A stretch of 64,000 nucleotides of DNA from Antedon mediterranea (Eukaryota > Animalia > Echinodermata), in NCBI RefSeq assembly GCF_964355755.1, contig NC_092674.1:15748001-15812000 (forward strand), written 5' to 3'. The notes under the pieces were generated by a model that saw only the letters and a list, made by a program, of their open reading frames with translations, was not told where the DNA came from and did not search any database. This document shows, piece after piece, positions 1 through 63,993 of this stretch (position 1 is its first letter; each line of letters begins with the position of its first letter). A program made the translations under genes and the position numbers.

Positions 1-539
1 AATCGATACCTATAACAAGAAAACAACATTATTTATTAATAACGATGATCATGTAAATAAATAATAAGGATAATCAATGGTATTTCTGTTAAAATTACAA
101 ATGTAAGGAGCATTACTAGTAAAATGACAAAAGTACTGTAACCGAATAAGTAATGTAAGTAAGTTGCAGGCAGTGAGTTTTATTTAAGAAAAGGTTATTA
201 CAAATAATGTGGTAGAAAGAAGTTTCGTATCGATCAGTAAATTACCTGTAAAGGCCAACATTGTTATTGCAATGAATAAGTTGGTTTAATAATGTAAATC
301 ACATACCTGTGTCTGTCAACCTTTTCGATATACGGAGATTCACTGAAGATCTGACGAACACATTCTCTGACATTCCTCATATTATACTTCTCCGGACAAA
401 TTGTATCAATAATGTGCAGCACGTTTAGAGAACCGCTGGTAGTATCTGGACAACGGAGAAGAGCCGCCACAACAAGTTCTTGAAATGAGAGAGGCATCAT
501 CAATGTATCGGTGAGATCGGAGAACATCATGCAAGACAT
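1..539 (-). CDS. Divergent forkhead-like winged-helix gene, copy A (exon 1 539-307; exon 2 starts at 9 and runs off the window)
   Basis: PLSFQELVVAALLRCP...VRECVRQIFSESPYIEKVDR aligns by eye with forkhead PYSYIALITMAIQSSP...[20 protein letters not shown]. Donor AG|GTATGT at 307/306; acceptor TTTTCTTGTTATAG|G at 10/9. Confidence 0.6.
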
Positions 540-639
540 ATTTAGGTTATTCGTCGTTCGGATAATAGTCGAATGGTAGCTTTTCAGATAATTCAGTTGA
601 CTTTAATAGTTGAATGCCGTAGAAATCAAAGACACACCA

Positions 640-760
640 TTTTATAAATGTCTTTGTCGGTTAGATATTAATGAAAGAACAAGAAAAACACAATAGAAAC
701 AATGGCTGCGTTGAGTAACGCGGGCGCAATCGCAACAATAAACAATTTTAAAACAATAGA
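640..760 (-). promoter_or_regulatory. Candidate promoter of the forkhead-like gene: TATAAAA plus clustered Sox-type (ACAAT) and Fox-type (ATAAACA) motifs; repeated in each unit
   Basis: TATAAAA on the minus strand at 646-640, ~100 nt upstream of ATG 539. Five ACAAT cores between 690 and 759; ATAAACAA at 738-745. Confidence 0.4.
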
Positions 761-1023
761 AACGGTAAAGCAAAGAAAGCAGATAACACTTTAATGATTT
801 GTCGGTATGAAATTACAACTTCCAATACTATTAAAAACAACTAGCATTTAAATTTAGTTGATATGAAAATATGTTTGAGAATAGACTACAGTTAATGTAA
901 GTTACAGAAGAGTATATTACTATTTACATTATGACACTGTAACTGAATATAAATACCAGAATGACACTTGTACAACGATACCAAGCCAATATGTCAGCTA
1001 AGAAGGTGGTATGGCGTTTAAGC

Positions 1024-1189
1024 ATACTTACCTGGCACAGGAGCGACTTTGATCAGAAAGGAATGTCCTCCCAAGATGAGGCCTCAGCATTGCACACACG
1101 GCTGCGGTTGACCCTTGCGATTCCCCCAAACGTGGGGAACTCGGGTGTATAATTTATGGTAGCGGGGGACTGCGTTCGCGCTAACCCCA
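1024..1189 (+). ncRNA. RNU1: U1 spliceosomal snRNA, copy 1 (variant in loop I and SL IV)
   Basis: Starts ATACTTACCTGG. Loop I GATCAGAAAG; loop II ATTGCAC; SL III TTCCCCCAAACGTGGGGAA; Sm site AATTTATGG; SL IV GGGGGACTGCGTTCGCGCTAACCCC; ~166 nt. Confidence 0.96.
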
Positions 1190-1547
1190 ACCCCAATTCG
1201 ACATTAATATTAGATAAGCCTATGCAGTTCACGATAATCGTTAGTTTAATTAAGAACACTTGATATATAACTATTTATGGTTACATTATCTGTTTTGAAA
1301 CTTTGTTGGTTTGTAACTATTTATTTTCTCTTAACAACTATTGGTATAGCATATTGACAGGCGTTGAACGCTTCATAATTATTTCGAAGCGTACGAAGAA
1401 TAATATCAAACTCTAGATTAAACAAAATCAAGTAGTCTATTATAGAACTTACGTATTTAAATAATTTTATTACTTTCTGTTAAACGATAATTATATTTCA
1501 CTTACAATATGTATTAAATGCTATTTATTTATAGATATTTTATTTAT

Positions 1548-2400
1548 TTACATGTCATATTGTTCTTGTCGAAGAAGTTTGGCGATAGAAAACCTTTGAC
1601 ATTTTAGACTCAATGATGAAGACGTAGTATGTACAGCGTTTAATTGTTCTGTTTCAGTTTGTAAGCAATGTTGTTTTTCTTCGCCATTTCTATCGCTGCA
1701 ATTCAAGTGGTTTATGGATTGGAGATCTAGCTCCATCGGTGCATTGCGTGATATCGTATACAGGTATGCCACCCACTCGTTGTAAGTGTTGGATGTTACG
1801 TGGTACTTCGTTCCATTCACTATAATGATATATGGCAGATAGTATTGCCAACCGTCCTGTCAATCGATACCTATAACAAGAAAACAACATTATTTATTAA
1901 TAACGATGATCATGTAAATAAATAATAAGGATAATCAATGGTATTTCTGTTAAAATTACAAATGTAAGGAGCATTACTAGTAAAATGACAAAAGTACTGT
2001 AACCGAATAAGTAATGTAAGTAAGTTGCAGGCAGTGAGTTTTATTTAAGAAAAGGTTATTACAAATAATGTGGTAGAAAGAAGTTTCGTATCGATCAGTA
2101 AATTACCTGTAAAGGCCAACATTGTTATTGCAATGAATAAGTTGGTTTAATAATGTAAATCACATACCTGTGTCTGTCAACCTTTTCGATATACGGAGAT
2201 TCACTGAAGATCTGACGAACACATTCTCTGACATTCCTCATATTATACTTCTCCGGACAAATTTTATCAATAATGTGCAGCACGTTTAGAGAACCGCTGG
2301 TAGTATCTGGACAACGGAGAAGAGCCGCCACAACAAGTTCTTGAAATGAGAGAGGCATCATCAATGTATCGGTGAGATCGGAGAACATCATGCAAGACAT
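1548..2400 (-). pseudogene. Forkhead-like/eh1 gene, copy B (exons 2400-2168 and 1870-1548); +1 frameshift at 1856-1857, possibly an assembly error
   Basis: 297-nt GT-AG intron in phase 2. An extra C versus copy C shifts exon 2 out of the frame ending RFSIAKLLRQEQYDM*. AATAAA motifs lie at and just after the stop. Confidence 0.6.
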
Positions 2401-2884
2401 ATTTAGGTTATTCGTCGTTCGGATAATAGTCGAATTGTAGCTTTTCAGATAATTCAGTTGACTTTAATAGTTGAATGCCGTAGAAATCAAAGGCACACCA
2501 TTTTATAAATGTCTTTGTCGGTTAGATATTAATGAAAGAACAAGAAAAACACAATAGAAACAATGGCTGCGTTGAGTAACGCGGGCGCAATCGCAACAAT
2601 AAACAATTTTAAAACAATAGAAACGGTAAAGCAAAGAAAGCAGATGACACTTTAATGATTTGTCGGTATGAAATTACAACTTCCAATACTATTAAAAACA
2701 ACTAGCATTTAAATTTAGTTGATATGAAAATATGTTTGAGAATAGACTACAGTTAATGTAAGTTACAGAAGAGTATATTACTATTTACATTATGACACTG
2801 TAACTGAATATAAATACCAGAATGACACTTGTACAACGATACCAAGCCAATATGTCAGCTAAGAAGGTGGTATGGCGTTTAAGC

Positions 2885-3050
2885 ATACTTACCTGGCACA
2901 GGAGCGACTTTGATCAGGAAGGAATGTCCTCCCAAGATGAGGCCTCAGCATTGCACACACGGCTGCGGTTGACCCTTGCGATTCCCCCAAACGTGGGGAA
3001 CTCGGGTGTATAATTTATGGTAGCGGGGGACTGCGTTCGCGCTAACCCCC
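2885..3050 (+). ncRNA. RNU1: U1 spliceosomal snRNA, copy 2
   Basis: Same hallmarks. Loop I GATCAGGAAG fits the GAUCANGAAG consensus; SL IV closes GGGGG/CCCCC. Confidence 0.97.
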
Positions 3051-3408
3051 ACCCCAATTCGACATTAATATTAGATAAGCCTATGCAGTTCACGATAATC
3101 GTTAGTTTAATTAAGAACACTTGATATATAACTATTTATGGTTACATTATCTGTTTTGAAACTTTGTTGGTTTGTAACTATTTATTTTCCCTTAACAACT
3201 ATTGGTATAGCATATTGACAGGCGTTGAACGCTTCATAATTATTTCGAAGCGTACGAAGAATAATATCAAACTCTAGATTAAACAAAATCAAGTAGTCTA
3301 TTATAGAACTTACGTATTTAAATAATTTTATTACTTTCTGTTAAACGATAATTATATTTCACTTACAATATGTATTAAATGCTATTTATTTATAGATATT
3401 TTATTTAT

Positions 3409-4258
3409 TTACATGTCATATTGTTCTTGTCGAAGAAGTTTGGCGATAGAAAACCTTTGACATTTTAGACTCAATGATGAAGACGTAGTATGTACAGCGT
3501 TTAATTGTTCTGTTTCAGTTTGTAAGCAATGCTGTTTTTCTTCGCCATTTCTATCGCTGCAATTCAAGTGGTTTATGGATTGGAGATCTAGCTCCATCGG
3601 TGCATTGCGTGATATCGTATACAGGTATGCCACCCACTCGTTGTAAGTGTTGGATGTTACGTGGTACTTCGTTCCATTCACTATAATGATATATGGCAGA
3701 TAGTATTACCAACCGTCTGTCAATCGATACCTATAACAAGAAAACAACATTATTTATTAATAACGATGATCATGTAAATAAATAATAAGGATAATCAATG
3801 GTATTTCTGTTAAAATTACAAATGTAAGGAGCATTACTAGTAAAATGACAAAGTACTGTAACCGAATAAGTAATGTAAGTAAGTTGCAGGCAGTGAGTTT
3901 TATTTAAGAAAAGGTTATTACAAATAATGTGGTAGAAAGAAGTTTCGTATCGATCAGTAAATTACCTGTAAAAACCAACATTGTTATTGCAATGAATAAG
4001 TTGGTTTAATAATGTAAATCACATACCTGTGTCTGTCAACCTTTTCGATATACGGAGATTCACTGAAGATCTGACGAACACATTCTCTGACATTCCTCAT
4101 ATTATACTTCTCCGGACAAATTGTATCAATAATGTGCAGCACGTTTAGAGAACCGCTGGTAGTATCTGGACAACGGAGAAGAGCCGCCACAACAAGTTCT
4201 TGAAATGAGAGAGGCATCATCAATGTATCGGTGAGATCGGAGAACTCATGCAAGACAT
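3409..4258 (-). pseudogene. Forkhead-like/eh1 gene, copy C (exons 4258-4027 and 3730-3409); nonsense TAA at 3708-3706 and a 1-bp deletion near the start
   Basis: Exon 2 is 322 nt and in frame with exon 1 (HR|YRLTDGW*YYLPYIIIVNGTK...), but has TAA where copy B has CAA. Confidence 0.6.
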
Positions 4259-4742
4259 ATTTAGGTTATTCGTCGTTCGGATAATAGTCGAATGGTAGCT
4301 TTTCAGATAATTCAGTTGACTTTAATAGTTGAATGCCGTAGAAATCAAAAGCACACCATTTTATAAATGTCTTTGTCGGTTAGATATTAATGAAAGAACA
4401 AGAAAAACACAATAGAAACAATGGCTGCGTTGAGTAACGCGGGCGCAATCGCAACAATAAACAATTTTAAAACAATAGAAACGGTAAAGCAAAGAAAGCA
4501 GATGACACTTTAATGATTTGTCGGTATGAAATTACAACTTCCAATACTATTAAAAACAACTAGCATTTAAATTTAGTTGATATGAAAATATGTTTGAGAA
4601 TAGACTACAGTTAATGTAAGTTACAGAAGAGTATATTACTATTTACATTATGACACTGTAACTGAATATAAATACCAGAATGACACTTGTACAACGATAC
4701 CAAGCCAATATGTCAGCTAAGAAGGTGGTATGGCGTTTAAGC

Positions 4743-4908
4743 ATACTTACCTGGCACAGGAGCGACTTTGATCAGGAAGGAATGTCCTCCCAAGATGAGG
4801 CCTCAGCATTGCACGCACGGCTGCGGTTGACCCTTGCGATTCCCCCAAACGTGGGGAACTCGGGTGTATAATTTATGGTAGCGGGGGACTGCGTTCGCGC
4901 TAACCCCC
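4743..4908 (+). ncRNA. RNU1: U1 spliceosomal snRNA, copy 3
   Basis: Same hallmarks; loop II reads ATTGCACGCA (G4815) instead of ATTGCACACA. Confidence 0.97.
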
Positions 4909-5389
4909 ACCCCAATTCGACATTAATATTAGATAAGCCTATGCAGTTCACGATAATCGTTAGTTTAATTAAGAACACTTGATATATAACTATTTATGGT
5001 TACATTATCTGTTTTGAAACTTTGTTGGTTTGTAACTATTTATTTTCCCTTAACAACTATTGGTATAGCATATTGACAGGCGTTGAACGCTTCATAATTA
5101 TTTCGAAGCGTACGAAGAATAATATCAAACTCTAGATTAAACAAAATCAAGTAGTCTATTATAGAACTTACGTATTTAAATAATTTTATTACTTTCTGTT
5201 AAACGATAATTATATTTCACTTACAATATGTATTAAATGCTATTTATTTATAGATATTTTATTTATTTACATGTCATATTGTTCTTGTCGAAGAAGTTTG
5301 GCGATAGAAAACCTTTGGCATTTTAGACTCAATAAAGAAGACGTAGTATGTATATATATTAATCAAGGTTTATTTATTTTAATTGTTCT

Positions 5390-5869: not shown

Positions 5870-6466
5870 CTGGGCTTCTTTTCAAGATAGTATGGGCTTC
5901 TTTTCGAGATAGACTACTATACTGTATTAAGAATGAGGTTTATTAACTGAACGTCAAAGGAACAGAAATAAACAATACAAACACGTGATTAAGAGTTAGG
6001 ATAATTTAATGCCAGATACTTGTGATGCAGACTGATGATAATAATTAATATGTATGATCGCGTTTATCATACATTTATTGTACAGTTTATTGTCGTCCAA
6101 ATGGTGCTTTGATCGCATCTTGTATCTTTTTCTTGTCTGCTTCGTTGGAAAATATGTAAAATCGGCAGGGAATTTCCACAAATGATTGTATTACGGTGAA
6201 TCATAGGACTGTTTTTTTTTTGCTTTTTATATTGTTTTTTTAATTGGTATATTAAACATAATTTCATGATTAAAAAAATGTCTCAAAAGTCATATTATTG
6301 TAGTAGAAATTCACAAAATTTACAGCATGCATCTCGAAAAGAAGCCCCCTCTACAGTTTGCAAAAGTACTCTCGAAAAGAAGCCCATCTCGAAAAGAAGC
6401 CCATCTCGAAAAGAAGCCCACCCAAGAGCACTAAAAAAGGAAGAAGCCCATGGGCTTCTTTTCGAG
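5870..6466. mobile_element. Probable non-autonomous DNA element with inverted subterminal repeats (ATCTCGAAAAGAAGCCC)
   Basis: TGGGCTTCTTTTCGAGAT copies at 5871-5910; reverse-complement copies at 6331-6420; palindrome AAGAAGCCCATGGGCTTCTT at 6441-6460. Confidence 0.55.
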
Positions 6467-6487
6467 GTTTTACGGTATACGACGAGG

Positions 6488-8192
6488 GTCTACGACAACT
6501 ACCCCCTGGACAACTACCACCCGGACAACTACCACCCAGACAATAACCCCCTGGAAAATCACCCTCCTAGGACAAATACCCCCCGGACAACTACCCTCTT
6601 AGGACAACTACCCCCTAGGCCAATTATCCCCTAGGACAACTACCCCCTAGGACAACTACCCTCTAGGACAACTACCTCCTAGGACAACTACCCTCTAGGA
6701 CAACTACCCCTAGGACAATTACCCCCTAGGAAAACTACCCTCTAGCTACCCACTAGGAACAACTACAGCTTACGATTGGTAACCAAATTAACAAGCTGCT
6801 TCTTTTGGTGCTAATTTTATTGTAAAATCAAATGGTGTGTAAAGAGGGGACTACGAGGGCGTTGTACCACACTATAAATACATATAACAATATTTGAGGT
6901 GAAATTATTAAAATATCCTAACATTTTTAGTATATTTTGTAATAACTGTAGCGATATTTATTTTTTTTTTAACTTCTAGGACAAACTATGAAAAACGATT
7001 TCCTCAATTGGCGCAGTTAGCTATGTTTTCAAAATAGGAAGACTAAGAAATGTATGAACTGTCAAACGGGGGAGAGAGAGATTGATTTTCAAATCGTCTA
7101 ATGTAATCAATTGTTTTATAGTGTAGGTTTTTTTAAATCTAAAGTCAAATTAGGAGGTTCTGTTCTGTAGAAAACGAATTGGAATAAAATGAAATAAGTA
7201 GAAATGTTTAAGTAATAGAAAATCATGGATATAATTATTCTTTAGGTTCTAAAAACGTTTATTGTTCTATTTTGTCAGGAGTGGAAAAAAAATGTAAAAA
7301 CAAATCAATTTAAGTTCTTCTATGAAGTAGTAACAGCCAAATCAATATTCCATTATTACTGGACTTTTAGTAGTAAACGTATAATGTCATTAAACAGCAT
7401 AATATAGCTCTACGGTAAAACATTTGTTTTGAAAAAGAAAAGATAGAACAAAATCGGGCCAATTTTATCGATAATAAGGGGCTTCTCCAGTCCCACTATC
7501 TTACAACTACCCTCTAGTCCAACTGCTATGCCCCTAGGACAACTACCCCTCTCGAACAACAACACTCTCTGAACAACCACATCTTCACCTTGGATTATTA
7601 TTACGATCTTGTAAATCTTACTGAACTTCAAAAGGGAGAGAGATTGATCTTAAATGAAAGACTGTTTGATTGACTGGTGCAGCTACAACTGTAGGTAAAC
7701 TGTATGTTCCTAGATTTATATACGGCATCTTCATGTCACACAAGAATAAAATAAGCCACCCCTTTATTTTTCAAGAATGCATTTTAATAATGTGATCAAT
7801 TCTCGTTTAATGTAAAATAACTGCCGACGATACGCATATTAAAAAAAAATCAAAAGCTATCATATAAGCAATCACTCTCCCTATGTTTTAAAGTTCAGTA
7901 AGTTTTACAAGATCGTAATTATAACCCAAGGTGTAGGTGTCATATGATATAGGTGTGGTTGTTCATAGGGTGTTGTTGTCCTAGGGGAATAGCAGTTGGA
8001 CTAGAGGGTAGGCCTAGTTGTCCCAGGAGGGTGCCTGGTTGTCCTAGAGGGTAGTTGTCCGGGTGGGAGTTGTTCTAAGGGGGTAGTTGTCCTAGAGGGT
8101 AGTTGTCCTAGGGGGTAATTGTCCGGGTGGTAGTTGTCCTAGGGGGATCATTGTCCGGGTGGTAATTGTCCAGTGGGTAGTTGTCCGGATAC
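6488..8192. mobile_element. Foldback-type non-autonomous DNA transposon(s) with tandem GGACAACTACCCCCT subterminal repeats
   Basis: 15-16-bp motif array at 6490-6770 and its reverse complement at 7970-8190; additional inverted pair ~7505-7650 / ~7870-8010. Confidence 0.75.
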
Positions 8193-16995: not shown

Positions 16996-18242
16996 AACTT
17001 GGTATGGCAGTACTGTATAACTTGGTATGGCAGTACTGTATAACTTGGTATGGCAGTACTGTATAACTTGGTATGGCAGTACTGTATAACTTGGTATGGC
17101 AGTACTGTATAACTTGGTATGGCAGTACTGTATAACTTGGTATGGCAGTACTGTATAACTTGGTATGGCAGTACTGTATAACTTGGTATGGCAGTACTGT
17201 ATAACTTGGTATGGCAGTACTGTATAACTTGGTATGGCAGTACTGTATAACTTGGTATGGCAGTACTGTATAACTTGGTATGGCAGTACTGTATAACTTG
17301 GTATGGCAGTACTGTATAACTTGGTATGGCAGTACTGTATAACTTGGTATGGCAGTACTGTATAACTTGGTATGGCAGTACTGTATAACTTGGTATGGCA
17401 GTACTGTATAACTTGGTATGGCAGTACTGTATAACTTGGTATGGCAGTACTGTATAACTTGGTATGGCAGTACTGTATAACTTGGTATGGCAGTACTGTA
17501 TAACTTGGTATGGCAGTACTGTATAACTTGGTATGGCAGTACTGTATAACTTGGTATGGCAGTACTGTATAACTTGGTATGGCAGTACTGTATAACTTGG
17601 TATGGCAGTACTGTATAACTTGGTATGGCAGTACTGTATAACTTGGTATGGCAGTACTGTATAACTTGGTATGGAAGTACTGTATAACTTGGTATGGCAG
17701 TACTGTATAACTTGGTATGGCAGTACTGTATAACTTGGTATGGCAGTACTGTATAACTTGGTATGGCAGTACTGTATAACTTGGTATGGAAGTACTGTAT
17801 AACTTGGTATGGCAGTACTGTATAACTTGGTATGGCAGTACTGTATAACTTGGTATGGCAGTACTGTATAACTTGGTATGGCAGTACTGTATAACTTGGT
17901 ATGGCAGTACTGTATAACTTGGTATGGAAGTACTGTATAACTTGGTATGGCAGTACTGTATAACTTGGTATGGCAGTACTGTATAACTTGGTATGGCAGT
18001 ACTGTATAACTTGGTATGGCAGTACTGTATAACTTGGTATGGCAGTACTGTATAACTTGGTATGGCAGTACTGTATAACTTGGTATGGAAGTACTGTATA
18101 ACTTGGTATGGCAGTACTGTATAACTTGGTATGGCAGTACTGTATAACTTGGTATGGCAGTACTGTATAACTTGGTATGGCAGTACTGTATAACTTGGTA
18201 TGGCAGTACTGTATAACTTGGTATGGCAGTACTGTATAACTT
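16996..18242. repeat. 23-bp minisatellite AACTTGGTATGGCAGTACTGTAT, ~54 copies
   Basis: Near-perfect tandem array with no spacers; four units carry GGAAG instead of GGCAG. Confidence 0.98.
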
Positions 18243-20790: not shown

Positions 20791-21752
20791 TGGTAACTGT
20801 CACAACACAAATACCGATCATCAAGTACACCATCTAGATTTCGGGGTCGATATGATATGGAAAATTGATATTTAAAAAAAAAAAACCGACAAATATTCTG
20901 TGGTAAACTATCCCCCGTCGGACACCATCCCGGCTTTTCTGAGTCTAGGTTTCGGGGTCGATATGATATGGAAAATTGATATTGGGAAAAAAAAAAAACC
21001 GGCAAATAAGTACAGCAGAGAAGCTATTGTTAACAATCATAATCAAAATACAGTATAACATGTTTTCCATGCAGCTAATTGCTCAAACCATTCTAGATAT
21101 CACACAATTAATTCATTTAAAAAATGCATAGAATGCGCGTCACGTATTAACAGAGTGAGAAAACATCCAATTTTTTTTAAATATTAGTTTTTATTTGGTT
21201 CTATGGGTTTGCATTTACTTGGTAAATAACTAATATGCATATTAAAATGTTGACATTTGACCTTATGTCAACTGATGAAATTGACCTTATGTCAACTGAT
21301 GAAATGATGTAGGCCCCTATTCGCGCTTTTACATTGCGTATAATAAAAGACCAAATTGTGCTTTAATAAATTTGTTATAATACATAATACATTGTTGTAA
21401 TTTGTCAATTTTGAACTTTGACACCCGTGTTTCCGCAGCCAAAACAAAATTATCGGTTAATTTTTTAACTAATAAAGTCCGCATGATTAGTCATTACCAA
21501 ACAATCAGATGCCCAATCACATCGCAACAATTGTTCTTCAGGTCAAAGGTTAAACATTATCGCATTTATTCGATAATTATCTGATTTGAATGAGATAATT
21601 ATCGGTTAATTTGTCAGTTAACAGTTAACAGCGGAAACACGGCCATCAATACAAGTAAATCGAAAGCTCTCTCTCTAATGTGCATATCGATAATTTCATA
21701 GTAACATCTTTGCGCTACCGTATCACAACTTCTGGTCTCATTGTGCATTCTA

Positions 21753-23944
21753 CCGATAGACCTTGGATCACTCCATACATTAAAAAACTTATCAGGTATA
21801 GACAAACTGCTTTTAGGAAGAAAAAACATGAACGTTACAAAACACTTAGAAATAAGGTAATATGGGAAGTAAAGAAAGCTAAGGAGAAGTACTATCGTTA
21901 TAAAGTAAAAATGCTTGAGGTGAGCAATCCCCGAAAATGGTACGACAAAGTGAAGCAGATTTGTGGTAAACGTAAAGACAAACCAAGAATTACATTTGAT
22001 AATCCTTTACCGATCCCAGATTCCGTTGCCTCTAAACAAATTAATGAACACCTCGCAAAAATTTGTCGTGAACTGGATCCTCTCAAACTTGACGAATTAC
22101 CTACATACCTCCCAGCTGAGAGTCCACCGCCACAAATTTTATGCTTTGAAGTTAAACAACAATTATTAAAAGTGCAGATTAATAAATCAGTTCCACCTGG
22201 AGAAATTCCACCAGTTATCATCAAAGAATTTGCACCCGAAATAGCAGAACCCCTAACGCATATATTTAATTCTTCTTTGAAAGAAGGTATTGTACCCAAA
22301 GCTTGGAAACAAGCTACCGTTATACCGATACCAAAGAAAAAAGGTACAGTCAGTATAGAACAGATTAGACCGATCTCGCTTACGCCACTGTTTATCCGAA
22401 TCTTTGAACATTTTCTAACTAAATGGTTAAATGAAGACCTATCTACCATTATAGATAAACAGCAGTTTGGTAATGTCAAAGGTATCAGCACGAGTCATTA
22501 CCTTATTGGACTCTTACACTACCTTCTTTCTGGACTGGAAAAACCTGGTCACAAAGCACGAATTCTTGCTGTAGATTTCAGCAAAGCTTTCGACCGTATT
22601 AGTCACCAGGTACTAATCAGTAAGATGATATCAATTGGTGTCAGGAAATCTATCATCCCGTGGTTCTGTAGCTTCCTAACTTGTAGAGAACAAAGAGTGC
22701 TCTATGGTAGCGCTATTTCCAGTTGGACATCTATATTTTGCGGTGTTCCGCAAGGAACGAAATCTGGCCCAAGCCTTTTTCAAGTAATGGTCATTGACTC
22801 GGCATCAGATTGCATTACAAGGTGGAAATTTGTCGACGATCTAACCTTCGCTGATATCTCAAAAAATAACTGTCAGGACTCTATTCAATCGTACTTTAGT
22901 AATTTAGAGGAATGGTGTAAAATAAATAAAATGTCCCTTAACCCTAATAAGTGTAAATCAGTGGAGATTAACTTTTGCAAAACTCCTGGTTACTATGATT
23001 TACTGACTAATAATGGAGTCCAAGTTGAGACTGTTAAGCAATTGAAGCTTTTAGGTGTAACTATCCAAGATAACCTTAAGTGGGATACACACATTGGTGA
23101 GATCGTTAGCAAGGCCAATAAAGCCATGCATATTGTGTCGGTACTTAAAAGGTTTGGTGCACCAGAAGATCAGTTAATTAAGATTTATAAATCTTTCATA
23201 CGCCCCATAATTGAATATGCTTGTCCAACCTGGCACTCCTCCCTGACTTCCGAATTAAGCTTTGACCTGTAATCGGTCCAGAAGAGGTTTTTAAGAATTT
23301 TACTAGGGAGGAGGTACTATTCGTACACTGCAGCCCTAAAGAAATTTTCTCTTGATAGGCTCTGTGACCGTCGTCTCCAGCTTGTTCTGAAGTTTGGGAG
23401 GAGTGTCCATGAAAAATTTAGTAATATTATCCCCAATACCCGTGCTGAAGCGACAGGTAGATCTCTCAGAAACGCAAACAAAATATCCCAAATTAAATGT
23501 AGAACAGAAAGATTTAAGAAATCCACACTCCCATTCCTGATTAACAATGACCTTATAGTGCAATAATATATATATATGAAATTCTTAATTTTGATAGGCC
23601 TACGGATAATTAATAATTTTACTCGCAGTTTTTAAATTTGTAATTGTATATTCTTTATTTTTTTTTTTATGAATTTATGTGTATATATATATTTTTATAT
23701 TAGATAGTTGTGTAATTTTGCTCGTTTTTGATATATATCTTTGTAAATTTGTAATTGTATATTCTTTCTTTTTTTTTTAATGCATTTTGTATATATATAT
23801 ATATATATTTATATTGGATGTTTGTGTAAATCTTGCTCGTTTTTGATATATTTTTAATGTTTATGTTACTGGACGCAATTCAGTTTTGTACTGCCATGTC
23901 TTTGTTTTTAAAAAACCAGAATAAATAAATAAATAAATAAACAA
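21753..23944 (+). mobile_element. 5'-truncated LINE (CR1/L2 group) with a near-intact RT ORF and one nonsense codon
   Basis: WKQATVIPIPKK, RPISLT, QFG, DFSKAFD, GVPQG, KFVDD. TAA at 23270-23272 is followed in frame by SVQKRFLRILL. (AATA)n tail 23920-23940. Candidate TSD CATTCTA at 21746-21752 and 23945-23951. Confidence 0.92.
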
Positions 23945-24711: not shown

Positions 24712-26268
24712 AATAAAATAACAGCAGAAAACTTGGTTACTTCATTGTTTTAATCACTACAAATTTGTTTCGTACGACCAGCATGTAGCTGGCCGCACTC
24801 TTCAGGTGAAATATAAAACATAAGTGACACAGTTGTCTCATAGTGCTTAATAGAAGTGAGTCATCCGGAAGTCGTATACAATAGCCTATTGTTTTAGATA
24901 AACTATTTGGATCTGCAATTTAGTAAGAATTTTTTCCTATGTCTACAAGTAGAGACTAAATCGTTCTTACGGTTCAGTGAGCATAGCTCTGGTTGACATT
25001 ATAATAATATACTTTTCATATATACATAAATTACATCTTTTGTTAATATTTGAGTAAGGTTTGCATTTCTTTATAATTTTCCATTTAATTGAGTAATTTG
25101 TTTTAGAGTCTTTTTAAAGACTCTAAAACAAATTAGTCAATTAAATGGACACTTAAAAGTGTCCATATATATTTACTGAGTTCCGTCGCGTTTCTTAGTT
25201 TTTCGTTCCGGAATGAAGACGTATGGTTTCTGTATCTGGTTTTAAACTGGTTTTCAGTTAGTCCGACATATGTTTCTTCTTTTGATGAATCTTCTCTCTT
25301 TACTGTAGCTTGGTAAACTACACCTTTTGTTAGGCAGTTACCTGGGAGCGGGCATTCATTGGGATTGCGGCAGTTACATCCGCTTGTTTTCGCGTTGGTT
25401 TCAGTAGACTTTTCTTTGGCTATCACATATTTGTTGTGTGCGTTAATTACTTTTTCTACGCTGGGCATGCAACTGTAGCTTAGTTTCAAGGTATTTCTGT
25501 TAAATATTTTTCTGATCTTGTTGCCGGCAGGAAAACAATCTTCTACTATAGCTAAAAACTTGTGGCCGATGTTGGTTGCTACGTTTTTGCTGAATGGTGG
25601 GTTAAACCAAATTATGTTTCTGGTACGTGATTTTTTGGGCTTCTGCTGTTCAGCATTGAACTCAAGTTGATGATTGTATCCGCTTTCTTTGAGGGCTTCC
25701 TGTTATAGGGGTGCAGATGCATGAAATGTATCTTTGTCTGATGAGATGTCAGAAAGGCGTCTATTTATAGCAAGTGGGATGTTGCGGATAATAGATGGAG
25801 GATGGTTGCTGTCATAGTGCACGTAGGTTGGTTTGTTATTAGGCTTAGTGAAAGGTCGGAAGATCCCTGTCCTTAGGTCGAACGTTACATCCAAATAATT
25901 GACTATTTTCTTGTTAGCATCAATTGTTAGCTTGAGGTTGTTCTCCTGGAACACCTTACAAATATCTTTCTTGATTAGCTCAATCGTTTTGGCTGATTCG
26001 CGAAACGCAGCTAGGCCATCGTCGCGGTATAGACGAATTTGGTTGCCATATTTGTTAGACAGTTGCGACAAAAGATATGTACCTACGATTTCACAGGTTT
26101 CAGCACCGTCAAAGCTTCCCATTGTGACGTTAAACACAGGTTGGTTTTCAGTTCCTTTTTTGCACCATGTAGCGTTATCATGGAAAAGGAGTGACTTTTT
26201 CGCTTGGATAATAATATTTGTTTCTTCATCGGAGATTGCTTCAAACTCGGAGGCGAATTCAAGGGCTT
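24712..26268 (-). mobile_element. 5'-truncated Penelope-like retroelement (RT + C-terminal GIY-YIG), inactivated
   Basis: [68 protein letters not shown]. Nonsense TAA at 25705-25703 between in-frame segments; hammerhead in the 3' region. Confidence 0.93.
24746..24820 (-). ncRNA. Type I hammerhead ribozyme in the Penelope-like 3' region
   Basis: Minus strand: TCAC-CTGAAGA-GTGCGGCCAGC-TACAT-GCTGGTCGTAC-GAA-ACAAATTTGT-A-GTGA. All core nucleotides present; 11-bp stem II; palindromic stem III; GUA cleavage triplet. Confidence 0.88.
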
Positions 26269-28599
26269 TATATTATAATTATATATTATACAGTACAATT
26301 TTGTTCACTTTCATCATTTCTTTTCCATTTTTTACAGTACAAGTTGATGGCGAGGACGATATAAGACATGTAGTCAATTTGTATTACCGTACTGTACACA
26401 AATCTAAACATGGCTGTTATTTGTTGTACTTTACAGAAATTACATTTTTAGGAGGACACGCCAAACATTGTGTCTATGTTCCTAAAATAAATTACGCAAA
26501 TGCGAGATGTTTGCAAGTAACGTGGACAAGCTAGCGCTATCTATTTTAGAGCTGATCATTAACAAAAAAAAGACTGCGACAACCACCTGACGATCTACGG
26601 CCATGGAAAGAGGAAACCTGAATTGGGCGAAAATAGGAGGAGAGCGTTAAGAAGTAAGAAGTACGTCTTATCAGTGTGTAGATTTTCAATAATCAAATTG
26701 TCGTCTTCTTCACATTTGTATAAAAGTACATAATTATAATATAAAACAAATAACTGGGTAATCCCAGGACAGCAAATAAGTCGCATTCTTTCTGTTTAGA
26801 ACTTAATTTGTTTTAAAGATAAACTCCCAATATGCTTGAAAATTAAAATAGGATATTTTATCCAGGACTATGTTAAATCAGAGCGATGTGGTGGCTGTTT
26901 CGATACTGTGTGTTATGGAGGCGACTATTGAAATGGATCTTCTATATCCCCCATATAAAATAACATGTGGTGGTATACAGAAATGCGTGTGCATTCATCA
27001 GCTGGGAAACCATATTGATACCTCAACACTGAACACAATTAAAAATGTGAATTGGATTAAAATAACACAAACCCATGAAATATAATATCGAACGTATAAC
27101 ATGACTTTTCATAAAACAACATTATTCAAAAATGTATTAGTATTAAAAACATGATTAGGGGCCTAAAGAAACTTTTTCAGCAATATTTAAAAACTGAAAT
27201 AGTGTTAATGTTAACAGATACTAATTACTAATACTATTAAAATTATGTTTGTATTATTAAACGTAAAAGTAAATGCAATGAAAAATACTTATTTTGCAAC
27301 AAATAACATTTCGAAATAGATAAAGTCACAAAAGAGAGAGAAAACTTAAGTTCAAAAGAATTACCATGCATAAAGAAATAACAAGAAATATAACAACAAT
27401 ACTAGGTTTATTTATAAACTTTCTTCCAGGTCACATCTTTGGTATCTATCCAGAGAAAGACGAGCTGGAGCAAACGGTGTGGGATACGATTGTTAAACGA
27501 CTTAATGATAAAATCAGGGCCATACGCAACAACAAGTACAACATAAAAAGTACCCATTCTCCATTAAAATAAAGTTGATTTAATTTCGCTTTCTTATCTT
27601 ATTTGTTTAAAGTTGCGTTTTTGATCACATCATCGCAGATCTTCAGTTGTACCGAAAGATCTATATATAAATTTACGTAAGGGCAAAATCTCGGTACTGA
27701 TTTTAACCACCTTATGTAACTCTGTTTACTAATTAAATTTAAGTAGATTATTAGTTATTGACAATTAAAAGAAATTTAGGTTCAACGATTTTCCCCAATT
27801 AGGGGTGTTTTCCGATTGTAGTATACACTGTCTAATGGATGTCCTCTTGAAAAAATACCTGCACACAATAATACGAGGATGTTTCGCATTTTCCTATCTC
27901 CTCCTACGATAATTGTTTTTAATAGCTGAAAACCGATTGAACAGCTCGAGTACAGTATCATAATGTTGAAGACAGGCCGATTTTCTTTAAAAAATACTAT
28001 TTTGATAGATTTAATATACGTTTATACAATTATATTGATTTGCGATGAATGGAACATTCCAATCTCTCAGACTCTTAGTTTGTTGGTAAATTTATGAGCC
28101 CTTGGTTTAACACAAGTTGGTAAATTTATGGGCTCTTGGAGAATAAACTTAAAACTCAGATATATAGTATTGCAATATTGTAAATACGTATTAACCATTT
28201 TTGGTAGCCATTTGAATCGAAACTTTCTTACTGTGAATTAATGTGGTTACTGTTAGATATATAAACAAATATATAAAGAACATTTATTACTGTGACTGTG
28301 GGTAGGCTCTACTGCTGGATATATAAACACATAATATACAAATAAAAACTGACAGTTGCTTCTCAACGTTTGTATTAATTAATAATTATAAAAAATATAA
28401 ACGTCGTAGTGGTGTCGTTACATGTACTTTACTATTTCAATCGATATTTATAACAGGGACAGTTTAAAAAAAGTATTAAATCGTAAATGTTTTACTGTGT
28501 AAACTTAAAATCCAGTAAATTCTCGAGGACGATGATATTGACTGTGTCATTTTCGTGTGGAAACACTCGCGTTAGGCGATAAATAAACAAAAGTAATCT

Positions 28600-32042: not shown

Positions 32043-63993
<31,951 letters not shown>

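Follow-up and report, generated by a model that had tools for sequence, protein, structure and literature searches.

A probable two-exon gene for a predicted winged-helix protein within a U1 small nuclear RNA array of Antedon mediterranea

Introduction

Can the repeat unit of a U1 small nuclear RNA (snRNA) array also hold a protein-coding gene and, if so, what kind of protein would it encode? The question is raised by a stretch of 64,000 nucleotides (nt) from the echinoderm Antedon mediterranea (assembly GCF_964355755.1, NC_092674.1, positions 15,748,001 to 15,812,000), referred to here as the window, in which positions 1..5352 are the right-hand end of a tandem U1 array. An initial annotation, made from the sequence alone, proposed that every ~1.86-kb unit of this array carries a two-exon, forkhead-like transcription-factor gene on the strand opposite U1. 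We find it very probable that the unit contains a real two-exon protein gene. Its product is probably a winged-helix protein, as judged from structure models, and a forkhead origin of that winged helix is favoured, not proven.

Results

The U1 array and the gene opposite U1

The array comprises two full periods and one partial, with unit spacings of 1861 and 1858 nt, and its units are ~99% identical to each other. Because the window opens mid-unit, the left part of the array, and with it the full array length, lies beyond view. U1 is full length in all three copies (Rfam RF00003 model positions 1-166, 126.7-130.4 bits against a gathering threshold of 69.5), and the covariance-model matches are uninterrupted in every unit. 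The array is also present in independent sequencing data: runs X1, X6 and X13 have contigs that are circular or one unit long (circular or wrap-around in X6 and X13). Near-identical head-to-tail units and these independent contigs identify a tandem snRNA array, as originally described. The features of the array, with the evidence for each, are as follows.

1024-1190, plus strand: U1 snRNA copy 1 (Rfam RF00003, 126.7 bits)
2885-3051, plus strand: U1 snRNA copy 2 (Rfam RF00003, 130.4 bits)
4743-4909, plus strand: U1 snRNA copy 3 (Rfam RF00003, 129.4 bits)
307-539, minus strand: exon 1, open, with exon 2 beyond the window start (homology search of the window)
2168-2400, minus strand: exon 1, ATG at 2400, 233 nt (77 codons and 2 nt); predicted helices 1-3 and strand 2 of the winged helix
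1871-2167, minus strand: intron, 297 nt, phase 2, GT-AG (GTATGT...TTTTCTTGTTATAG) (sequence)
1548-1870, minus strand: exon 2; predicted last winged-helix strand, conserved hairpin-helix extension, variable linker and eh1-like motif
1569-1592, minus strand: coding for FSIAKLLR, the eh1-like motif at majority-frame residues 171-178 (motif tables of PMC1939712)
2501-2507, minus strand: TATAAAA, ~100 nt upstream of the ATG (sequence)
1548-1543 and 1544-1539, minus strand: two overlapping AATAAA (sequence)
2401-2884, no strand: 484-nt spacer from ATG to U1 +1, head-to-head (sequence), with a presumed promoter role
4027-4258, minus strand: exon 1, frameshift near codon 5 as assembled (comparison of units)
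3409-3730, minus strand: exon 2 in the majority register, TAA at the eighth codon as assembled (comparison of units)
5270-5353, minus strand: 3' end of exon 2, truncated at the array edge (tblastn)

The two-exon minus-strand frame and its intron lie at the coordinates first given for them, and homologous proteins (below) run across the exon join. The head-to-head arrangement with U1 is likewise confirmed: in the leftmost unit the ATG at 539 and U1 +1 at 1024 are divergently oriented and 484 nt apart. The gene signals fared less evenly. TATAAAA at 2507-2501 and AATAAA at the stop are present, but in a second lineage represented among the sequencing runs the former reads TTTAAAA (position 2506). 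Compared with 1000 shuffles, the spacer shows no enrichment of Fox, Sox-like or TATA motifs (p=0.34, 0.68 and 0.24, respectively).

Some smaller features of the array were recorded. Single-base variants occur within U1 copy 1 (at 1057) and copy 3 (at 4816), and in the second lineage U1 has changes at 2947 and close to its 3' end. The array stops within exon 2 at 5352-5353, where a TA run follows; a terminal repeat is not apparent by eye. Five plus-strand ACAAT words, which we take to be Sox-like, are found within 68 nt of the spacer (2551-2618); counting both strands, the spacer has 6 such words compared with 2.7 in shuffles (p=0.051).

An open frame in the majority unit

Both complete gene copies of the window carry defects as assembled, which weighs against a functional gene. 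The copy at 2400-1548 has one additional base at 1856 and encodes 137 amino acids (aa), and in the copy at 4258-3409 one nucleotide is missing near codon 5 and exon 2 contains a TAA. Logan contigs of eight sequencing runs were aligned to the window. Five of these cover position 1856 (X1, X2, X6, X7 and X9), and the other three (X16, X17 and X13) cover the gene in patches only. All five covering runs lack the additional base and have no stop change listed. Thus, the 184-aa open frame proposed as a consensus is the majority form of the array unit, even though the window's two complete copies have breaks, which may be assembly errors or may reflect decay at the array edge. A frame of this length is unlike those of shuffled sequence: in 200 dinucleotide-shuffled units the best one-intron open reading frame (ORF) averaged 69 aa, with a maximum of 150 aa, and 0/200 reached 184 aa.

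The run data consist of contigs, none of which is joined at the intron, and X1 (RNA by guess) contains the intron, so these data are not evidence for or against splicing. In X2 and X7 the unit contig is 20-100 times as deep as the diverged side contigs, a ratio not usable as a copy number. In X7, diverged exon-2 fragments of low depth (33-37, compared with ~3,800 for the main unit) correspond to window positions 1559-1873 (records 11 and 13), and one of them skips 1624-1856. A likely explanation is that the second lineage has dispersed paralogs or orphons.

Homologs cross the exon join

Exon 1 alone, used as a query, retrieved two relatives, and later searches brought none further (the relatives numbered 1 among 9 candidates, 2 among 18, 2 among 1348 and 2 among 1.84 billion representatives). 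One of the two, P0004, is XP_033095719.1, an uncharacterized 204-aa RefSeq model encoded at LOC117100230 in the feather star Anneissia japonica. The other, P0003, is a 250-aa ENA record without a name. Both are 60-64% identical to the majority frame over residues 1-122, and their alignments cross the exon join with a gap of at most one residue (73/114 identities for P0003 and 73/121 for P0004). Past the join, the scores against P0003 and P0004 are 150 and 155 for the majority frame, compared with 30 and 22 for the frame as assembled and 19 and 20 for read-through into the intron. As the homologs pass straight from exon-1 to exon-2 sequence, we infer that the intron is spliced out, with the proviso that both homologs are protein records, which could derive from transcripts, from spliced gene models or from copies lacking the intron. 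The Anneissia homolog makes a crinoid source likely for the window, and the GC content of ~33% is in line with the feather star value in excerpts of PMC7351957.

The linker of P0003 (residues ~138-215) is enlarged by a Cys-containing tandem repeat, with the domain and the terminal motif retained. Two candidate loci were rejected as chance matches: L001 matches only the low-complexity linker of P0003 and L002 matches over 28 residues, and U1-unit DNA is absent from both.

Silent changes prevail between lineages

The runs of organisms B-F have one common set of variants and were therefore counted as one second lineage, so that there is one independent comparison only. This lineage is ~2% diverged in non-coding DNA (7/297 positions in the intron and 11/475 upstream). 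Within the coding sequence there are five silent and three replacement changes over 115 and 437 sites, respectively, giving a ratio of replacement to silent rates (dN/dS) of ~0.16 (binomial p=0.012). In codons 1-120 the counts are four silent and one replacement (p=0.009), for a split that was chosen after the fold had been seen. One of the three replacements is also polymorphic among the window's own copies. Three more variants, each in single runs, include two that are silent. Between the lineages the coding sequence has a single indel, of 3 nt and in frame. The intron has unchanged splice sites and an interior with 7 substitutions and several indels. A ratio below one had been expected of a functional gene, and the comparison agrees. 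The test is small, with 8 changes in a single comparison, and this counts against a strong reading of it; the pattern modestly indicates that selection keeps the majority frame open.

The gene-U1 unit is retained in the second lineage, in line with the linkage anticipated for related genomes. The X6 contig is a 1861-nt circle that carries the gene and has 229 unshown letters at the place of U1, and the X9 contig spans position 2478 through U1 to 3181.

Predicted fold

AlphaFold2 was run on the Anneissia homolog, with the other sequences supplied as an alignment, both for the whole protein (predicted local distance difference test score, pLDDT, of 49) and for residues 7-121 (pLDDT 69, predicted template modelling score 0.63). 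The two models have the same order of helices (H) and strands (S), H1-S1-H2-H3-S2-S3, followed by a low-confidence hairpin and helix (pLDDT 45-57). This order corresponds to the H1-S1-H2-H3-S2-wing-S3 arrangement of Fox proteins. Foldseek searches of the PDB with these models returned forkhead domains in 31/32 and 33/34 of the rows listed (target template modelling scores ~0.5-0.76), and the structural check suggested in the initial annotation thus points to a winged helix, with nearly all rows forkhead and none at E<=0.001. In two VIA-align searches of 48,161 chains the leaders were FOXN1 (Z 10.1, root-mean-square deviation (rmsd) 2.2, 79 residues aligned) and yeast Fkh1 (Z 9.8, rmsd 2.7, 80 aligned), and forkheads made up nine and seven of the top ten. 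Forkheads therefore lead all four structure searches. Atlas gave Forkhead clusters as leads by features and by structure, every one under its bar; when exon 1 alone was searched, Atlas gave the winged-helix leads HARE-HTH and DpnI_C, all below 0.9.

Several results weigh against a forkhead identity. At best, Foldseek matches reach E 0.02, and Fox chains are 6-19% identical. The proposed Pfam check came back negative, as there is no Forkhead (PF00250) row at E<=10 for the four window ORFs or the two homologs, and forkhead is also absent from the matches of the PDB sequence and profile searches. Histone H5 comes within 1 Z of the forkheads in both VIA-align searches (Z 9.2 and 9.1, rmsd 1.9-2.1, 66 residues aligned), and a viral winged helix reaches Z 9.0 in one of them. 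P0003 is without ~4 residues of the predicted recognition helix. In Fox proteins this helix (helix 3) carries a recognition triad of Asn(i), Arg(i+3) and His(i+4), with Asp at i in FoxH1, according to excerpts of PMC9701222. The pattern Asn/Asp-x-x-Arg-His is absent in all three proteins; by eye, only the Arg is possibly retained, in two of the three. Because the triad is absent throughout, we do not file the protein as a Fox family member. The description 'forkhead-like' is thus upheld for the predicted structure and for the C-terminal motif described below, and fails as a statement of Fox membership by sequence.

Other matches were weak and below cut-off, and were rejected. These are Pfam TraP, Glyco_hydro_81, Y4YQ_C, PMG, conotoxin and keratin, and, among PDB sequence matches, formin INF2, Est1 and a prophage protein.

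A terminal eh1-like motif

All three proteins have an eh1-like motif near the C-terminus (FSIAKLLR, FSIDELIR and FSIDELLK), beyond linkers that are unlike one another. Shuffled versions of the proteins yield such a motif at 0.4-0.7% per protein. According to the accessible text of PMC1939712, most Fox subclasses carry eh1, a motif for interaction with Groucho, on the C-terminal side of the domain, and the pattern and position seen here fit the Fox eh1 tables given there. Each protein thus has the F-S-I-x-x-L-L-like sequence, C-terminal to the DNA-binding domain, that is expected of an eh1 repressor motif. A point against reading the motif as a sign of Fox ancestry is that eh1 is short and is thought, in the same excerpts, to have more than one origin.

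Discussion

Proposed mechanism

We favour, with moderate confidence, a two-gene cassette in which U1 is paired with a winged-helix protein that is likely a Groucho/TLE-recruiting repressor derived from a Fox gene. U1 would be transcribed one way and the messenger RNA (mRNA) the other way, both from the 484-nt spacer, and the intron would be spliced out, as the homologs suggest. The winged helix may bind DNA or nucleosomes, likely with altered specificity; as the base-reading Asn and His are replaced, binding would probably not be at the canonical forkhead site. The terminal motif would recruit Groucho/TLE and repress targets. Unequal crossing-over and gene conversion would amplify and homogenise both genes together. 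Since the two genes would be amplified jointly, gene dosage would follow U1 copy number, and the copy-number coupling that was originally suggested holds by construction, as the unit is common to both. Timing shared with U1 is possible. The linkage itself may be selected, or the gene may hitch-hike. A more elaborate version is a tentative proposal and on balance unlikely: a DUX4-like, multi-copy and extremely diverged Fox repressor of feather stars, with a bidirectional 484-nt promoter region shared with U1, activated with the embryonic U1 burst, and with a dose set by array length.

Alternative explanations

The gene could be real and its winged helix not derived from Fox, the protein being instead linker-histone-like or another chromatin-binding protein, with an eh1-like motif that is independent or incidental. 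Besides the missing forkhead sequence signal and base-reading triad, this is favoured by H5 and H1.8, which both come within ~1 Z of the best forkheads in the VIA-align search with the domain model (H5 does so in the other search too). A linker histone is defined by a long lysine-rich basic C-terminal tail in addition to its winged-helix domain. Here the winged-helix domain is predicted, but the tails are neutral to acidic in all three proteins: the window protein has 6 K+R and 9 D+E in its last 64 residues, and the homologs are neutral. The absence of a basic tail argues against a linker histone. In excerpts of PMC5011920, U1 of Hydractinia shares one unit with histone genes, H1 included, which suits a histone-like protein here. 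Set against a non-Fox origin are the Foldseek rows, almost all of which are forkhead, the longer forkhead alignments in the VIA-align top ten (71-84 residues vs 66 for H5), and the eh1-like motif in all three proteins. We regard this explanation as unlikely.

It is less likely still that the gene is a passenger, that is, a former single-copy gene beside U1 that was caught in the amplification, with most array copies silent or decaying and few working. Such a history would account for the broken copies in the window, for the altered TATA of the second lineage, for the low-depth diverged exon-2 fragments outside the main unit in X7, and for the Anneissia protein being on record from one contig. 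The majority unit is, however, open in all five covering runs, and the window copies may be damaged by their place at the array edge or by assembly errors. The array consensus also has an excess of silent-site changes between lineages, which a silent array would not keep.

Dada and Utopia are elements that insert in snRNA genes and carry a transposase or reverse transcriptase. The unit is multi-copy, lineage-restricted and bound to an snRNA gene, as a selfish element targeting or carrying U1 and served by the protein would be, but such an element is very improbable, because Pfam found no transposase, reverse transcriptase or Rep domain in the four unit ORFs scanned, U1 is uninterrupted, the gene has a spliceosomal intron, and there are 0 dispersed copies of the unit in the remaining 58.6 kb of the window.

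Comparison with known systems

A probable cassette of U1 and a Fox-derived repressor, our preferred explanation, has partial parallels. D4Z4/DUX4, as far as the available descriptions go, likewise has a transcription-factor gene in every array unit. DUX4 is a homeodomain activator, whereas the protein here is a predicted repressor beside U1; to our knowledge the D4Z4 unit has no snRNA gene. The nearest arrangement is the histone repeat of Hydractinia echinata, which carries U1, U2, 5S ribosomal RNA and tRNA-Arg (accessible text of PMC5011920). As in Antedon, U1 and protein genes share a tandem unit and are amplified jointly. The 6-kb Hydractinia unit contains single-exon canonical histones, in contrast to the one spliced, orphan, regulator-like gene in the 1.86-kb unit here. 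In sea urchins, echinoderms whose U1 genes also occur in a repeat, the tandem repeat is developmentally switched, and regulation of U1 isoforms during development has been reported; the accessible text of PMC4291461 mentions no protein gene in the unit.

Like the Fox proteins tabulated in excerpts of PMC1939712, the protein has a predicted N-terminal winged helix and, ~90 residues downstream, a C-terminal F-S-I-x-x-L-L/I; the subclasses with a C-terminal eh1 listed there are A-E, H, I, L and Q. It differs in having no Pfam Forkhead match, in the absence of the Asn and His, and in an added conserved hairpin-helix past the domain. The sea-urchin orphans FoxX and FoxY are fast-evolving and unassignable, and can still be placed in the Fox phylogeny (excerpts of PMC4077281).

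FoxH1 may be relevant, and we treat its relation to the protein as a lead only. It has a forkhead domain, a folded C-terminal extension and then eh1 (excerpts of PMC9701222; PDB 7yzb). Its 100-residue alignment to the domain model is the longest, and it heads the Atlas leads by features, at 0.78 and under the bar. However, its Z of 7.7 is below those of other Fox chains, the extension is modelled at low confidence here, and Asp-x-x-Arg-His is absent. FoxH is reported as lost in echinoderms and hemichordates in excerpts of PMC4077281, and it is highly doubtful that the gene is this FoxH, hidden from profile searches.

The statement that no U1/Fox-like unit had been described needs qualification. 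In our literature search, made mostly outside subscription journals, LOC117100230 was not mentioned and a transcription-factor-like gene was not described in any snRNA unit, but a unit combining U1 with histone genes is known in Hydractinia. Thus, neither the combination nor the protein family appears to have been described, whereas the kinds of arrangement are known.

Other features of the window

Short tandem repeats with 16-17 nt units are located at 6370-6745 and 7975-8188, those at 6490-6745 and 8038-8188 being oppositely oriented; they resemble the arms of a non-autonomous element. A 23-nt minisatellite at 16996-18242 has 54 copies at 99% identity, with three minus-strand frames open. 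Retroelement remains were identified at 21659-23272 on the plus strand (RVT_1, E 1e-25), and 45150-46211 (plus strand) resembles them by eye. The region 25133-26272 (minus strand) appears Penelope-like by eye, with no Pfam match at 1e-3 for the part 25703-26269. Also present on the minus strand are exon-like frames at ~32500-32750 and 62180-62557 that are ABC transporter-like by eye and have no Pfam match at E<=0.001.

Implications

The locus reveals a protein family that has no name and escapes sequence profiles, in a kind of repeat that is collapsed in assemblies and masked as snRNA in annotations. It raises testable questions: whether RNA polymerase II promoters for an snRNA and an mRNA are accommodated in one short spacer, whether Fox classes considered lost persist in derived forms that can no longer be recognised, and whether genes are hidden in other snRNA arrays. 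If the protein does act as a repressor, the dose of a developmental regulator would be set by the length of the array, and a protein gene would be subject to the concerted evolution of U1.

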